From a virus (lineage: Duplodnaviria; Heunggongvirae; Uroviricota; Caudoviricetes): DNA of 64,000 nt. The notes below the pieces were generated by a model. That model saw only the letters and a list, made by a program, of their open reading frames with translations. It was not told the DNA's origin and searched no databases. The stretch lies in the IMG/VR virus record IMGVR_UViG_2778261161_000002. One strand, written 5' to 3'. Positions 9,917 to 50,215 of the stretch are shown piece by piece (position 1 is the first letter of the stretch; each line of letters starts with the position of its first letter). The position numbers and the translations under genes were made by a program.

Positions 9917-10094
9917 CGGAATGTATGATCTGCATCATCGACTGAAGTCATCCATTGCTGAAATTTTTAGTTGATCTTCCATGTTTTCAGGCTTATATTC
10001 ATGCCGTCGTAGCAAATTCTGCGACCAGGTTTGACAGCCTGAATGTTAGTGCGGACAACCGCAGATTTCCGATATTGCGGTATTTTTGTGTCCG

Positions 10095-10215
10095 TAAACC
10101 GCGTTACGCCCGAATTATGGTGGGGCGTGATGGGGAGGCTTCGGCCTGCTGGTCTCACTAACGCCAGTCTGTCAACCCTGTCACGTCCTGCCACCTGTTT
10201 GACAGCGGGTAGCAG
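10095..10215 (+). ncRNA. c4-like antisense RNA region of an immI-type module
   Basis: GGTCTCACTAACGCC (10151-10165) is complementary to the direct repeats CCTGAATGTTAGTGCGG (10037-) and CCTGTTAGTGAGGCC (10224-); the latter overlaps the icd RBS; exact RNA ends unknown. Confidence 0.4.
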
Positions 10216-21982: not shown

Positions 21983-22078
21983 GGAGATCGTCGTCAGGAA
22001 ATCATTGACGCTTGCCGGGTATGGGCGAACGAATGGGATAAGAAGAATGGGGGGGTAGAAGATCTTTATGGGAAATAA

Positions 22079-22250
22079 TGTGTTAGAAATCTAAAATCAC
22101 AATTCGAATGTATTGATTGTGAAGATAACTTAACATAGAATTTTCCTTGCTGGTGGGCGGTACCCACGTTTCGCTTGCTGGGCTTGATAGTCACTTATTG
22201 GTTATTGTTCTCCCACCAGCATTTAACAAATTAAAGTGTTAGAAAAATAT
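22079..22250. promoter_or_regulatory. cluster of TGTTAGAAA-type motifs (sites E/F)
   Basis: TGTTAGAAATCTAAAATCACA at 22081 and TGTTAGAAAAA at 22238, plus TTAACATAGAA half-site. Confidence 0.35.
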
Positions 22251-23312
22251 GGTAATACAAGAGCACGCTTTGGCACCGTGCAGGCCAAAGTTCAGCAGGT
22301 TTAGTGCGGAAAGTGGTTTCAGAGAGAGCACTTTGCGGAGTAAACGACAATACATGTTGAGCCACGGAAGGTCTTTTTAAGGTGTTCATTGATGATGGTC
22401 CGGCAGAGAGTAACGGTACATGCTGTATCTAATCATCAATGCACATCTTCAACATTAAGGAGGCATAGGGATTTTTGTGGCGGTTACCTTTTGCCCTGAG
22501 TCTCCTTAATGTTGCGGTAATGCACCTATGCGGATGTGGCCTTGCATTGTGTCTTGAAAGAATGGGGTAAGGCCGGGGATATCCCCAGGGGGAGGCACCC
22601 CCGCTGCAACGAACAGCCACAGACGGCAGTCGAGTGATGGAAACGTGTAAAGACTTTAAACCTCGTTACGGCTGGCGTGGCAAACGCGACAACCGAGACA
22701 GAGCGGTGACGGGCGGAGAGAGTGCCGCATCAAGAAAGAAGCCGACTTGTGATCCCTTTCTGCGGGCATTTGAAAGTGAATCCAGCTCAGGCAGTCGGCT
22801 TCTTTCTTGTGTGAGATGTAGCGTATTTGCCCATCTTCGGGTGGGCTTTTTTAGGGTTTTCGTCATGGTTAGCGACTTTGCGGCGGTTTAGAAACCGACC
22901 ATTAAAGTAAATGCAAACGATGATCTGATGATGGTAGCGGCCTAAGAAGCCTGACGCCACGGGGTATGAGTCGTCCCCCGTCAAAAAATCGACCGCAGAG
23001 TGTCCCCGTCTGTGTATTAGGGAACGGGGAGGCATAACAGGCAAGGGCGCTGGTGTGATTAACCAGATGAATGAGAAGGGTCAGGTCTTTCTGGTCAGCG
23101 CCCTTACCTGTTACGTCCCTCCAGCGTAACAGCCATTGCTTGATGGCACCCTGGGAGAATTTCTTGTAACGGGTAAATCCCGTCATGCTGAAGGCGCTAA
23201 TCACGCTGGAAGCCAGGGTTATGCATCCCCTGTTACCGAATTGCAGCCAGGGCGCGATGCGCCGAAAAGCATACGGAGGTGGAAGCCCTCGCCGGAGACG
23301 TACCCGGCAAGT

Positions 23313-23389
23313 GATGGTGTAGCTCAGTAGGATAGAGCAGCAGCCTTCTAAGCTGTCGGTCGGTGGTTCGAATCCATCCACCATCGCCA
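23313..23389 (+). tRNA. tRNA-Arg (anticodon UCU)
   Basis: hand-folded cloverleaf: 7-bp acceptor GATGGTG/CACCATC, anticodon loop CTTCTAA, T-loop TTCGAAT, encoded CCA; resembles E. coli argU. Confidence 0.85.
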
Positions 23390-23391
23390 AT

Positions 23392-23464
23392 GCCGGTTTA
23401 GCTCAGTTGGTAGAGCGCCTGCCTTGTAAGCAGGATGTCAGCGGTTCGAGTCCGTTAACCGGCA
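23392..23464 (+). tRNA. tRNA-Thr (anticodon UGU)
   Basis: acceptor GCCGGTT/AACCGGC, anticodon loop CTTGTAA, T-loop TTCGAGT. Confidence 0.85.
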
Positions 23465-23476
23465 CCGACACAACAG

Positions 23477-23550
23477 GTAAGGGTATTTTGCGACGTCGGA
23501 GATCGCCGTGCTTGGCAGAGGGTTCGAATCCCTACGAAGTACCCTTACCG
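23477..23550 (+). other. tRNA-like remnant (non-canonical)
   Basis: GGTTCGAATCC T-loop motif inside a 10-bp stem GGTAAGGGTA/TACCCTTACC; no canonical cloverleaf. Confidence 0.3.
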
Positions 23551-23921
23551 TTGTGATGAAGTGCAGCTCTTTGAAGCAACCAGAAGATAAGCATCTGGCT
23601 TCACAACATAAACCGCATGAACGACCAATAAACGGTAGTCCGTATGGAGAACACCCCGTTGAGGAAGAGGCCTGGCCGGAACCGTAACCGGCACTACAAC
23701 GTTGAGAACACTGGCGTAACGGGGTCATATCCCAATCTATGAATAAATGTTGCGTTGCAGCGTGACAACCAGTGTTCTCAACATTGTGGTGAATGCGCAG
23801 GCTGATGCGCGAAAGACATTGCAGCTATTGCGGAAAAGAGCTGTTCGGCGGGGCAATTAAACGCCCGTGAGAGTCTGAAATAACCGCAAGCCGGAGATCA
23901 GCACCGGTCGCCACAATCAGC

Positions 23922-24008
23922 GGAGAGTAGGGGGCATGGTGCTCAAGCGGTCTTGAAAACCGTCCCATTGCGCAAGCGATGATGGTTCGATTCCATTACT
24001 CTCCGCCA
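23922..24008 (+). tRNA. tRNA-Ser (anticodon UGA), type II with long variable arm
   Basis: acceptor GGAGAGT/ACTCTCC, anticodon arm GGTCTTGAAAACC as in E. coli serT, T-loop TTCGATT, CCA encoded; D-arm atypical. Confidence 0.55.
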
Positions 24009-24168
24009 TCGCAACGTTAAGAGTATTTGGCTAATTAAGCGAATGCCGGAAGCAGAACCGGATCATCAAATGCGTACAGGCGTCATCGCCGCCCAGCCAG
24101 CCAAGTGCTCTTACCATTGCGGTGAATGCGGCTAAGCGCACGCGGAACAGTTAAAACAATCCTCCTTA

Positions 24169-24492
24169 GTGGTTAAGTCAAACATCCCGGCGTTAATTGT
24201 TAACTGGTTAACGTCACCTGGAGGCACCAGGCACCGCAATCTAATAAAGTTTCAAGCAATGGGGTTTTTGTTGTCAGACTTCAGATATAGATGGTTGTGG
24301 AAGGAGAGCCTGTACATAGTGCAGTTATTTCTTCCGCTATTTGTCTGCTTTGTCATGCTTCCTGAGCTGAAATACGCAATTTCAGACACTTTAAGCACTA
24401 TCGTTACTTTTGTGTTTTATCTTTACTTTGATTACTTATTGAGCACTAAAATCAATGAATTATCCGAGGAAATGCAAGGTGGCTGTAAGTGA
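24169..24492 (+). CDS. small hydrophobic protein in tRNA island (start uncertain, possibly 24259)
   Basis: AT-rich ORF with two hydrophobic helices. Confidence 0.3.
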   Translation: MVKSNIPALIVNWLTSPGGTRHRNLIKFQAMGFLLSDFRYRWLWKESLYIVQLFLPLFVCFVMLPELKYAISDTLSTIVTFVFYLYFDYLLSTKINELSEEMQGGCK

Positions 24493-24620
24493 TGGATTTT
24501 TGGGCGTTTGCCGATAAGAACCCTGGTTGGACATTTTTATTTTTGCTGGTGGTTGCATATGGGGTCGAGCAAGCGGCTAAAGCCTTACGCGGTTCTGGCA
24601 AAAAGCGTAAGCGGAATTAA
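24492..24620 (+). CDS. 42-aa membrane peptide with basic tail
   Basis: MDFWAFADKNPGWTFLFLLVVAYGVEQAAKALRGSGKKRKRN; TGATG overlap with upstream ORF; ends 10 nt before tRNA-Ile. Confidence 0.3.
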   Translation: MDFWAFADKNPGWTFLFLLVVAYGVEQAAKALRGSGKKRKRN

Positions 24621-24629
24621 CAGTAATCT

Positions 24630-24705
24630 GGCCCTTTAGCTCAGTGGTTAGAGCAGGCGACTCATAATCGCACGGTCACCGGTTCAAATCCGGTAGGGGC
24701 CACCA
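24630..24705 (+). tRNA. tRNA-Ile2 (anticodon CAU, ileX-like)
   Basis: near-identical to E. coli ileX over the D and anticodon arms; encoded CCA. Confidence 0.8.
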
Positions 24706-24759
24706 TATTTGGTTGTAACACGGCGTATGGCACATGCGTCGTTAGCGGTCTGGTGTAGC

Positions 24760-24779
24760 TGTTAGGTACCTTACTAACA
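24760..24779. promoter_or_regulatory. TGTTAGG...CTAACA palindromic motif (operator-like site G)
   Basis: TGTTAGGTACCTTACTAACA upstream of 25160 gene. Confidence 0.35.
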
Positions 24780-25159
24780 CTGCATGGGCACATCAGGTAG
24801 CCGGAATGTGCAAGTCACCGCTGGAGGGATAGCGGACTCAGGGACTCACCATCCTGGCGATTCGGTGTGACAGCCGGAATAGCACGGCGCACAACAGGAA
24901 AAGGCGTTTAATTAACGCGAGCGCCGTTTCCGTTGTGGTAATTGCGGCTATGCGCTCGTGACGAAGCCATTTTCATTCACTACGTTCTGATAAGTGACGT
25001 CGCCGGGAGTGGCTAACCTGGCAGGTGGAGGCACCACCGCCACAACTCCTCTCAATTCATCATATAGCCGCTCAGGCTGTACCTCTTAATTAATACGAAG
25101 TTACGACATCACTACCGGTACTTCCGGGGGATAGTCGCGCGTGTAAAAAAGGAGACGTT

Positions 25160-25735
25160 ATGTTAATGGCGAACGATAACGCATATGCAGAAGAAGATCT
25201 CATTTTGAGTGACTTCATAGGGAAGCGGGAACGCTGGACCCAAAAGCGAGAGGAACTTTACGCCTCATTAGTTCGCAAAGGCGTCAATATCGAAACCGCA
25301 CAGAGCGGCGATATGACAGTGGTAAGCGTTGGATTGCACGGTGTAAGCGTGTCAGCAATCAATCATGAGCCATACGTTGCGTTATCCGAGTCAATGGTAA
25401 GGTTAGTTAAGTTCCTGAAGTACACAGAAGCGAATAATGTAATCATTGGCAAAAAGAATATCCCTTTTTCCTCGGCTTTTTACTGGATGATGAAAGGGCT
25501 TGATGCCCGGCGGACATCATGGCCTAAAGGGAGCTATATATCGATGTTCCGTGGCAGCATTGGCAGCAAAGAAAAGCTCTTCGAATTCTTGCCGGAAGAG
25601 GCATTCGATATTGTGGAAGGGTGCGATGTGATGGTGATGCCTCGCCTGGTAATGATGAATGGGGATTTACAGGCGCAGACAGACTGGTTTGCAACTGGTG
25701 TGGATATTATCGCGACTGACTGGGAGGCTTTCTGA
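25160..25735 (+). CDS. protein with C-terminal DUF2829 (Tad2-like) domain
   Basis: 191 aa; C-terminus FSSAFYWMMKGLDARRTSWPKGSYISMF ... DIIATDWEAF parallels the 33382..34083 C-terminus. Confidence 0.5.
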   Translation: MLMANDNAYAEEDLILSDFIGKRERWTQKREELYASLVRKGVNIETAQSGDMTVVSVGLHGVSVSAINHEPYVALSESMVRLVKFLKYTEANNVIIGKKNIPFSSAFYWMMKGLDARRTSWPKGSYISMFRGSIGSKEKLFEFLPEEAFDIVEGCDVMVMPRLVMMNGDLQAQTDWFATGVDIIATDWEAF

Positions 25736-44255: not shown

Positions 44256-44948
44256 TCAGACTTTAAGCTGCCCTCCCTTCACCTGCATTAGCGTCAGATT
44301 TCCGCAAAAAACCGCGCCCGTGTCTATGTAGTGCTGATTCCAGTATGCTTTTGGTCTTCGTACCGGTGTGTGCCCAAAGATAAAGCGATCTGCGCCTGTA
44401 ATTTCTCCACCAATGCCATCTATCGAATCACCGACGCGACTGCGCGACCAGACAACATCAAAAAGCGACACATCCTTACCGAACTGGTACTCTCCACCTG
44501 GATAGTCGGCATGGGCTATAACGATAGTTTCATGCCCGGTGTTCAACTCAATGATATATGGCAGACGCTTTACCAGCTCCACCAGCGCCCTGGCTAATAT
44601 TTCCTGATCAGCGTCCAGCATGAAGAACCATTGTCCGCCATTCATTAGCCAGTTATTCACGTTGCCATCAGGACTTAACGCATCGATCATTAATCGCTCG
44701 TGGTTTCCCATAACCGACCGAAACCAGGGCATCTGCAATAGCTCCAGGCATTCAACATTTTCGGTGCCGCGATCGATAAGGTCGCCAACCGATATCAGTA
44801 AATCCTGCGCCGGGTCAAAATCCACACGATGGAGTTCGGACATCAGTCTGGTGTAGCAACCATGCAGATCACCAACAACCCATATGTTTCTGTAGCCAGA
44901 ACCATCAATACGGCTATATAAATTCACTTCATGCATAGCCTGTGTCAT
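44256..44948 (-). CDS. Ser/Thr protein phosphatase (lambda PPase-like)
   Basis: 230 aa; GDLHG, GDLIDRG, GNHE metallophosphatase motifs. Confidence 0.8.
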
Positions 44949-49927: not shown

Positions 49928-50094
49928 AATACTGACTGTTGCGCCCTGGCATTATCGTGGGGTATATTTCTACGGCACCTTAGAAAAACGGGTGCCGGGA
50001 TTGGAACCCCGGATAATGCAAAAGGCGACACAGACGCCGAAAGCGTCTTTTCTTGTGTCATGCCATCGCACAGCCATACGTAGCGTTTAGCTCA

Positions 50095-50215
50095 GAGATC
50101 AATGGTAGTGCTGGCTGGGCTGCCGAAAGGCAGGCCGGTTCCCTTTTGCGCCGGTAGTTCCAACCCAGTCAGTGCTACCGCCATTGAGATTGGAACCTCA
50201 CGCGGTAGCTCCTTA
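50095..50215 (+). ncRNA. second c4-like antisense RNA region (distinct specificity)
   Basis: GGTAGTTCCAACC (50152-) complementary to repeated GATTGGAACC elements at 50000 and 50189; same layout as 10030-10240 with different sequence. Confidence 0.35.

Follow-up and report, generated by a model that had tools for sequence, protein, structure and literature searches.

What lies between the tRNA genes of the phage-plasmid recorded as IMGVR_UViG_2778261161_000002? The stretch of this IMG/VR record that we analysed (64,000 nucleotides (nt), hereafter the window) is, judging by its sequence, an Escherichia coli P1/D6-like phage-plasmid. A preliminary description of the interval 23465-24630, made from the letters alone, had singled out four tRNAs, a non-canonical tRNA-like element, a perfect 14-base-pair (bp) inverted repeat, two repeated spacer blocks followed by GC hairpins and two small open reading frames (ORFs), and had offered three explanations: that tRNA genes are decaying or duplicated there, that the elements are signals for processing, or that small RNAs are embedded in the region. 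The observation is real and far from chance, and the interpretation is partly supported: the interval belongs to ~2.6 kb (about 22450-25050) in which one strand is densely packed with non-coding RNA. According to our preferred reading, to which we assign a probability of roughly 0.6, two kinds of module – long hairpins (LH) and D-domains akin to the core of the prophage small RNAs (sRNAs) STnc100 and PasD – are interleaved with real tRNA genes in the leader of a repressor-controlled early operon, and the array is co-transcribed, excised by nucleases and acts in the form of stable RNAs. The identity of these elements as conserved stem-closed RNA modules on the tRNA strand is well supported.

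The two repeated spacer blocks (23771-23797 and 24104-24130; 27 nt, 85% identical, each followed by a GC hairpin, much as first described) are junctions at which the 3′ strand of a long hairpin runs into the 5′ end of a D-domain, a multi-helix structure of ~100-135 nt. The D-domain is closed by a helix RTTGYGG...CCRCAAY, within which come a linker of the GAAU type, a first hairpin and a variable middle; a terminal hairpin of 4-5 bp abuts the closing strand. Covariance modelling places four such domains in the window, all on the tRNA strand (D-1, D1, D2 and D3, see Table 1). The best-preserved copy, D2, is matched by the Rfam model of STnc100 (RF02076) at 24118-24238, over model positions 31-147 of 206 (E = 1.4e-6); the same model also matches in part the equivalents in P1, D6, RCS47 and Ro157, and a Shiga toxin (Stx) phage copy scores 207.7 bits. 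In scans at E<=10 or E<=1 the Rfam model gave no match to D1, D3 or D-1. These three copies were found by our own model R1, which was built from D2-type copies and Stx-phage STnc100 cores only, that is, using none of the three, and was run with filters off; its best background match reached 11.7 bits.

The secondary structure is conserved along with the sequence. The closing helices of D1 and D2 (ATTGTGG/CCACAAT versus ATTGCGGTG/CACCGCAAT) form a compensatory pair of changes, and D1 contains the hairpins GCGCA-GGCUGA-UGCGC and, terminally, CCGG-AGAUCAGCA-CCGG. When 12 copies from the window, P1, P7, D6, RCS47 and three Stx phages were folded singly, nearly all adopted the same plan, with the terminal hairpin changing among CCUGG/CCAGG, GGUGG/CCACC, GGGGG/CCCCC, CCGGG/CCCGG and CCGG/CCGG, and with the junction and loop nucleotides GGUGAAU and AGGCA conserved. 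A pattern scan of viral contigs with two sequence motifs, followed by the model, yielded 89 domains, 69 of them distinct; 96.1% of the cells in the distinct set are paired, as compared to 33-48% with the 3′ partners slid, figures which, as in our other sets from viral contigs, are inflated because the sequences were selected by motif and aligned by model. Both sides have changed in 11 of the 19 pairs, G-U pairs are common and mismatches are rare. A hammerhead-like CUGAUG...GAAA arrangement in D1 was inspected by eye and set aside, as its elements are wrongly spaced and neither D2 nor D3 conserves it.

STnc100 is a prophage sRNA located just 3′ of stx2 in Stx phages and related to the Hfq-associated sRNA PasD; both have been reported as expressed, Hfq-associated prophage sRNAs. 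The full RNA of an Stx phage consists of a short leader, the D-type core, a linker and a terminator. We consider it well supported that the D-domains of the window are terminator-less relatives of this core: common to both are the closing helix, the GGUGAAU linker, the first hairpin and a 5-bp terminal hairpin with an AGGCA loop abutting the closing strand, and both are found in accessory leader regions of phages, 3′ of tRNA genes. Unlike STnc100 and PasD, the window copies are devoid of a 5′ leader, a seed linker and a Rho-independent terminator, and in front of them stand long hairpins, not promoters; a single operon holds four of them, alternating with tRNAs. Moreover, they reside in a P1-type leader controlled by C1, whereas STnc100 and PasD reside in a Q-dependent late leader. 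Lambdoid contigs hold arrays of up to four D-domains, each with its own AT-rich upstream spacer, linker and terminator, and thus each looking like an independent sRNA gene. A same-strand tRNA lies within 1 kb upstream of 30 of the 132 lambdoid D-domains, and downstream of two.

Each D-domain is preceded by a long hairpin, a stem of 14-21 bp that closes a small two-hairpin junction and whose 3′ strand continues directly into the 5′ closing strand of the domain. The perfect 14-bp inverted repeat, which we find exactly where it had been placed (23701-23714 and 23769-23782), is the stem of one of these, LH1; it can be extended to 23 nt at 91% complementarity, the added pairs joining the 3′ strand of a preceding D0-like segment to the 5′ strand of D1. 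The window has only four places at which a perfect inverted repeat of 14 nt or more encloses a loop no longer than 120 nt; two are in the RNA region, and such repeats are ~100-fold rarer in dinucleotide shuffles (mean 0.03). A 17-bp perfect inverted repeat, longer than any other that we found in the window, lies between D-1 and the terminator downstream of it (22731-22747 and 22793-22809).

In every unit, the LH stem is able to extend into the first 4-9 nt of the closing strand of the next domain, through the pairs CACAAC/GTTGTG, CACTACAAC/ATTGTGGTG, CGCAA/TTGCG or CAAC/GTTG; the motif RTTGYG is 4.8-fold enriched on the tRNA strand of the region. Since the extension uses the D closing strand, full extension of the hairpin and closure of the domain compete. 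The D0-like segment consists of two sub-modules: a mini-hairpin at 23550-23607 (GTTGTGA/TCACAAC) and a second part at 23610-23700, which ends in the hairpin CCGG-AACCGUAA-CCGG followed by CACTACAAC. Homologues of the two halves occur separately from one another, in P22-like, Sashavirus and Klebsiella phages and in Citrobacter phage phiNP. By eye, the 5′ strand and terminal hairpin of this segment resemble those of a fifth D-domain, an assignment that we rejected, as both R1 and a further model, R2, are silent on it and the segment splits into two separately conserved pieces.

The tRNA-like element, which had been delimited as 23477-23550, lies within a few bases of these limits and is itself a long hairpin, LH0. 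Its 15-bp stem, formed by GGTAAGGGTATTTTG (23476-23490) and CGAAGTACCCTTACC (23535-23549) and extended by a further 6 bp (CACAAC, 23469-74, with GTTGTG, 23550-55), closes a junction that holds the conserved hairpin CGACGUCGGAGAUCGCC and a perfect T-arm, AGGG-TTCGAAT-CCCT (23519-23533). The T-arm is without variation (AGGG-UUCGAAU-CCCU) in 11 distinct LH0 homologues, gathered from viral contigs using the conserved interior; D-domains have no T-arm. The long stem is 90% paired in these homologues, with both sides changed in 11 of 21 pairs, and the long and T stems taken together (25 pairs) have 91.6% of cells paired, as compared to 37-53% when partners are slid. In the Enterobacter phage BUCT554, a P22-like podophage with the order LH0, D-domain, linker, terminator, the LH0 stem is different yet complementary. 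The invariant interior and the compensatory stem changes across phage families argue for purifying selection on the RNA structure and not for tRNA decay. A scan of a genome collection for LH0 returned one match, and therefore gives no taxonomic picture. A Y-RNA-like (YrlA) identity of LH0 was rejected, as the Rfam YrlA model matches only a true tRNA. Taken with the partial Rfam match of D2, the R1 matches to held-out copies and the covariation across 69 sequences, the covarying LH stems bear out the embedded structured RNAs that had been suggested from the letters.

The repeats are also present in relatives, and the modules recur well beyond them: in P1, P7, D6, lambdoid, P22-like and rV5-like phages. 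The interior of LH2 (24033-24097, 65 nt), which folds into two hairpins, is 96.9% identical to positions 44866-44930 of lambda, an unannotated spacer between tR′ (the terminator of 6S RNA) and gene S for whose 65-nt element we found no Rfam family, and ~89% identical to a segment of rV5-like phages that also lies 3′ of tRNA-Ser. In the rV5-like phage phita32, the tRNA-Ser and the LH2 homologue are followed by an unannotated odd tRNA with a 4-base anticodon according to ARAGORN (Rfam tRNA model, 35.5 bits). The late-leader spacer of lambda resembles the window in carrying, 3′ of tR′, a long hairpin CACAAC-A-GGTAAGAGCA...TGCTCTTTCC-GTTGTG, with ends CACAAC-A-GGTAAG...CTTTCC-GTTGTG as in LH0 and LH3, and next a 9-bp D-type closing helix around the 65-nt element, followed by a terminator. 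The arrangement differs in that the 65-nt element is enclosed by a D-type closing helix in lambda but by a long hairpin in the window, and in that lambda has one unit and no tRNAs, unlike the array of the window. The modules of the window are homologous to those of the lambdoid late-operon leader, and several lambdoid contigs display the order late terminator, LH, a tmRNA-tag-like element (see below), pseudoknot, LH, D-domain, linker, terminator and lysis genes.

Close relatives differ from one another by whole modules. E. coli plasmids of ~93 kb match the preliminary interval at 99.9% identity, and phages D6, P7 and P1 do so patchwise at 92-95%. RCS47 joins LH0 to a D1-type core, another hairpin replaces LH0 in P7 and Ro157, D1 is truncated in P1, and in Cyrano the Thr and Ser tRNAs are 8 nt apart with no modules between them. 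Other structured non-tRNA RNAs are encoded among or beside phage tRNA genes. The stable RNAs of the T4 tRNA cluster (species 1 and 2) are co-transcribed with tRNAs and cut out by tRNA-processing enzymes; they are themselves partly tRNA-like, and a relation in sequence or structure to the modules described here is not expected. GOLLD and ROOL are conserved structured non-coding RNAs that are typically found beside tRNA genes of phages and prophages in other bacterial phyla; these are single RNAs of 500-800 nt, unlike the short and modular elements of the window, in which Rfam gave no GOLLD or ROOL match.

How could such an array work? The annotation of P1 and P7 places the C1-controlled Pban promoter and an operator upstream of the homologous tRNAs, and a single promoter-like site precedes the island in the window (22113-22141). 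This site is flanked by a sequence AA(A/T)TAA(T/A)GTGTTAGAAA in two copies (22073-22089 and 22229-22245), which are candidate repressor operators and may belong to D6-type immunity. The terminator scan identified one strong site, between D-1 and the tag element, a weak candidate after D3 (25063-25081) and none after D1 or D2. Building on the observed homology in sequence and structure, covariation, copy number, strand and distribution, we propose that lifting of the repressor would allow transcription of the whole array together with the tRNAs as one precursor. RNase P and RNase E or Z would then cut at the tRNAs, and RNase III, for which the 14-23 bp stems are candidate substrates, would probably cut the long perfect stems, thus freeing the modules. 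Processing signals, also among the explanations first offered, are plausible. The D-domain RNAs would persist as stable structured RNAs, serving either as trans-acting regulators or protein ligands, in the manner of STnc100 and PasD, or as 5′ structures that protect the messages downstream.

Several points weigh against this proposal. Co-transcription as one unit, the processing enzymes and the function are inferred. As the window copies do not have the linker and terminator of a stand-alone Hfq-binding sRNA, they may not bind Hfq at all. The Rfam score of D2 (39.4 bits) is below the gathering score of 47, D1 matches our models only moderately and the D0-like segment is undetected by them. The LH stems share nucleotides with the 5′ closing strands of the D-domains, so that the helices cannot all form together. 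Finally, many of the homologues are near-identical P1-like sequences, and the wider sets carry the selection bias described above.

The modules might instead act purely in cis, punctuating a long untranslated leader, supplying RNase III and RNase P sites, forming stable 5′ structures for the messages of the small ORFs and of a downstream Tad2-like gene, and leaving no unstructured RNA for Rho, with no role in trans. The missing terminator and seed linker would be expected on such grounds, as would the ~2.6-kb leader that is nearly ORF-free yet highly structured; D2 and D3 lie directly upstream of ORFs, and D1 lies 4 nt upstream of tRNA-Ser. What speaks for a role in trans is that lambdoid phages have this core as the body of stand-alone sRNA genes that end in a terminator, and that GGUGAAU and AGGCA are conserved beyond the needs of a mere stable hairpin. 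We regard an exclusively cis-acting array as rather unlikely, but as an explanation to be taken seriously.

Less probable in our judgement, and plainly unlikely as a full account, is that the stems (CACAAC/GTTGTG and relatives) serve mainly at the DNA level, as linkers or as the ends of small mobile cassettes in module recombination, folding being a by-product. Modules of P1, P7, D6 and RCS47 are shuffled exactly at the stem junctions, a lambda-like contig carries extra modules between the CACAAC and GTTGTG motifs as compared to lambda, module pieces are 73-97% identical among unrelated phage families, and the enrichment of RTTGYG points the same way. However, the stems covary so as to keep pairing, and their frequent G-U pairs and few A-C mismatches indicate selection on the RNA of one strand; likewise, all copies are in the orientation of transcription. 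The RNA and DNA readings are not exclusive: both the cis-acting and the recombination-linker explanations remain live, and both are compatible with an array of processed, stable RNAs.

A further conserved element, the tmRNA-tag-like element, lies ~550 nt 5′ of LH0. Its parts are a conserved block on the 5′ side, a tag frame whose stop codon sits in a hairpin, and an H-type pseudoknot, the stems of which covary in all six sequences examined. The tag frame (22913-22945; GCA AAC GAT GAT CTG ATG ATG GTA GCG GCC TAA) encodes ANDDLMMVAA and a stop, as compared to ANDENYALAA for the SsrA tag of E. coli, and has no in-frame start codon. The match of the Rfam model of permuted transfer-messenger RNA (tmRNA_permuted), of which the aligned part is the tag-coding region, is sub-threshold (Table 1), as are the tmRNA matches of 27-34 bits, the highest being 33.5, at homologous places in three other carriers (gathering score 47). 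Carriers include P1, D6, lambdoid, Vi1-like, N4-like and T1-like phages, 46-kb siphophages and an Aeromonas phage. Scanning viral contigs with the upstream block, tag excluded, produced 13 peptide variants, each of 10 codons plus a stop, which differ by synonymous or conservative changes and by exchange of TAA and TAG. The element is like tmRNA in its resume-type GCA codon, its 10-codon tag of the ANDxxxxxAA type, its stop codon in a small hairpin and, in the six sequences examined, the H-type pseudoknot directly after; it is unlike tmRNA in that no tRNA-like domain (G3-U70 pair, 3′ CCA end) was found by ARAGORN, by Rfam or by eye. In phage Bp4, two non-canonical tRNA-like genes (Ala-CGC and Cys-ACA according to ARAGORN) flank the tag element, the first of them starting directly after a TATAAT box; as candidate tmRNA halves both were rejected, since neither has G3-U70.

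Could LH0 be the missing tRNA-like partner? On this view, enterobacterial phages both temperate and virulent (P1-like, lambdoid, N4-like, Vi1-like and T1-like) would carry an unrecognised tmRNA-like RNA with no discernible tRNA-like domain; in P1-like and lambdoid phages, the tag element would join with LH0 in a split or degenerate device that tags proteins or interferes with, subverts or replaces host trans-translation. We hold this to be a long shot. It draws on the constancy of the tag, on the stop-codon hairpin and covarying pseudoknot, on the sub-threshold tmRNA matches at homologous places in four phages, on the perfect T-arm of LH0 and on the position of LH0 in lambdoid contigs, on either side of the tag element and no further than 100-150 nt away (it lies ~600 nt downstream in P1-like genomes). 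Against it stand the absence of a G3-U70 acceptor stem and of a CCA end, a T-arm that is not stacked on a 7-bp acceptor stem, the unmet thresholds of ARAGORN and Rfam, a conserved wobble pair in LH0 that is U-G and not G-U, and the many phages that have the tag element and no LH0. A candidate tmRNA 3′ end, AGCTCCAC, occurs 3′ of the tag in 7 of 122 cases and was rejected, being a covarying hairpin and not an acceptor strand. The tag element itself may be a functional device, a decoy or a relic. We found no prior description in the literature on P1 sRNAs, phage tmRNA-like elements or these tag peptides, which, as subscription journals were thinly covered, argues only weakly for novelty. The pipeline of the current tmRNA database takes ARAGORN-type matches as its starting point and would miss such elements.

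That the elements are decaying or duplicated tRNA genes, as had been suggested, is largely refuted and in our view very improbable. As described, there are exactly four tRNAs by ARAGORN, Arg(UCU), Thr(UGU), Ser(UGA) and Met/Ile2(CAU), the last being homologous to trnI of P1, a lysidine-type tRNA-Ile that is annotated as ileX-like. A check for additional canonical tRNAs in 23467-23921 and 24009-24629 returned none, either with ARAGORN or with the Rfam tRNA model at E<=10. The T-arm of LH0 conforms to the tRNA consensus, the topology of the D-domain is multi-arm and cloverleaf-like, and the slot after tRNA-Ser and the LH2 homologue in rV5-like phages holds the odd tRNA mentioned above. However, neither LH0 nor any D-domain is matched by the tRNA model at E<=10, and beyond its T-arm LH0 has no tRNA architecture: its 15-21 bp stem encloses only two inner hairpins, with no 7-bp acceptor stacked on a 5-bp T stem and no D or anticodon arms. 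To this are added the invariant interior and covarying stem of LH0, and the fact that the D-domains form a large family with its own conserved structure. As tRNA derivatives the D-domains were likewise rejected, R1 giving only an 8.8-bit background match on tRNA-Arg, and R2 none on tRNAs or on the odd rV5 tRNA.

It is hardly credible that the region encodes the minus-strand proteins Plp and Upl, as annotated in P1 and RCS47 across the equivalents of LH0, the D0-like segment and LH1: while the window does contain a 96-amino-acid minus-strand ORF (23438-23728), this is missing the first 29 residues, neither protein has a Pfam family, the C-terminus of P1 Plp is the antisense of tRNA-Thr and LH0, that of the RCS47 ‘Plp’ is entirely unrelated after a module swap, D6 and P7 annotate no such genes and conservation tracks the plus-strand RNA helices, so that plp and upl of P1 are probably not real genes.

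The remaining features of the stretch are collected in Table 1 with those discussed above. The two small ORFs both exist as first described, with the correction that the stop codon lies 9 nt, and not 10, before tRNA-Ile; Pfam searches with them returned nothing. Directly 3′ of the RNA island, at the position of ban in P1, is an ORF (25160-25735) with a Tad2-like domain of Thoeris anti-defence (PF11195, E = 1.1e-9). The segment between tRNA-Ile2 and LH3 (24720-24901) is another conserved non-coding module, 73-88% identical in phage BUCT554, where it is also located 5′ of an LH and a D-domain. The tRNA-Ser(UGA) is missed by the Rfam tRNA model and scores 45.2 bits with the tRNA-Sec model, below the gathering score of 47; it has a 9-bp acceptor alternative and an odd D-arm and is, despite its atypical form, conserved in D6, P7, Cyrano and rV5-like phages. 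Elsewhere in the window are two loci of C4 antisense RNA (9993-10198 and 49975-50185), one with an a1/b1 target and the other with an isrK-like RNA; being separate, they suggest two immunity-type regions in one element.

Table 1. Features of the RNA-rich stretch and its surroundings, by position in the window (MFE, minimum free energy; R1 and R2, D-domain models)
Feature	Position	Strand	Evidence and remarks
LH-1	22450-22514	+	repeat search: 21-nt arms, 86% complementary; arms enter first 4 nt of D-1
D-1	22511-22610	+	R1 29.4 bits, E = 5.5e-5; R2 54.5 bits; closing helix GTTGCGG/CTGCAAC, terminal hairpin GGGGG-AGGCA-CCCCC
Intrinsic-terminator-like hairpin and T-run, between D-1 and tag element	22829-22852	+	terminator scan; one strong site
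tmRNA-tag-like element	22856-23020	+	Rfam tmRNA_permuted 24.1 bits, below gathering score 47
LHa	23026-23122	+	repeat search: 27-nt arms, 81% complementary; ATAAC-A-GGCAAGGGCGCTG / CAGCGCCCTTACC-TGTTA
tRNA-Arg(UCU)	23313-23389	+	ARAGORN; Rfam tRNA 70.6 bits
tRNA-Thr(UGU)	23392-23466	+	ARAGORN; Rfam tRNA 74.9 bits
LH0 (described as a tRNA-like remnant)	23469-23555	+	sequence, fold, homologue covariation
D0-like segment, two sub-modules	23550-23700	+	separate homologues of halves
LH1	23692-23791	+	repeat search; fold z = -3.44; shuffle rarity test
D1	23783-23917	+	R1 21.8 bits, E = 0.0033; R2 33.9 bits; MFE fold agrees; closing helix ATTGTGG/CCACAAT; ends 4 nt 5′ of tRNA-Ser
tRNA-Ser(UGA), atypical type-II	23922-24008	+	ARAGORN
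LH2	24010-24121	+	fold; stem 24016-30 / 24101-15, 14/15 pairs including 2 G-U
D2, best-preserved copy	24116-24240	+	Rfam STnc100 39.4 bits; closing helix ATTGCGGTG/CACCGCAAT, terminal hairpin CCUGG-AGGCA-CCAGG
Small hydrophobic ORF, 77 amino acids	24259-24492	+	ORF list; no Pfam match; no similarity to TciB
TciC-like small membrane ORF	24492-24620	+	39% identity to P1 TciC over 33 amino acids
tRNA-Ile2 (anticodon CAU; Met per ARAGORN)	24630-24705	+	ARAGORN; P1 trnI homologue
LH3	24890-24937	+	fold; direct repeat of LH0 5′ strand; CACAAC-A-GGAAAAGGCG / CGCCGTTTCC-GTTGTG
D3	24932-25046	+	R1 34.9 bits, E = 2.9e-6; R2 57.7 bits; closing helix GTTGTGG/CCACAAC, terminal hairpin GGUGG-AGGCA-CCACC

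What does the locus mean for phage biology? The corresponding region of P1, now annotated as minus-strand plp and upl plus empty spacer, is indicated by our analysis to hold an array of conserved RNA modules on the plus strand, in which RNAs of the STnc100/PasD type appear in a new arrangement with newly recognised partner modules. This links the STnc100/PasD sRNAs, the spacer of lambda between tR′ and the lysis genes, and the tRNA islands of P1-like and rV5-like phages, three pieces that had been dealt with apart from each other and that look like one modular RNA toolkit exchanged among phages. The long-standing question of why phages set structured RNAs beside tRNA genes becomes testable here in a genetically tractable system. 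Finally, the tag frame appears to be under selection at the level of the peptide while having no tRNA-like domain, and, if functional, it would represent a new point of contact between phages and ribosome rescue.

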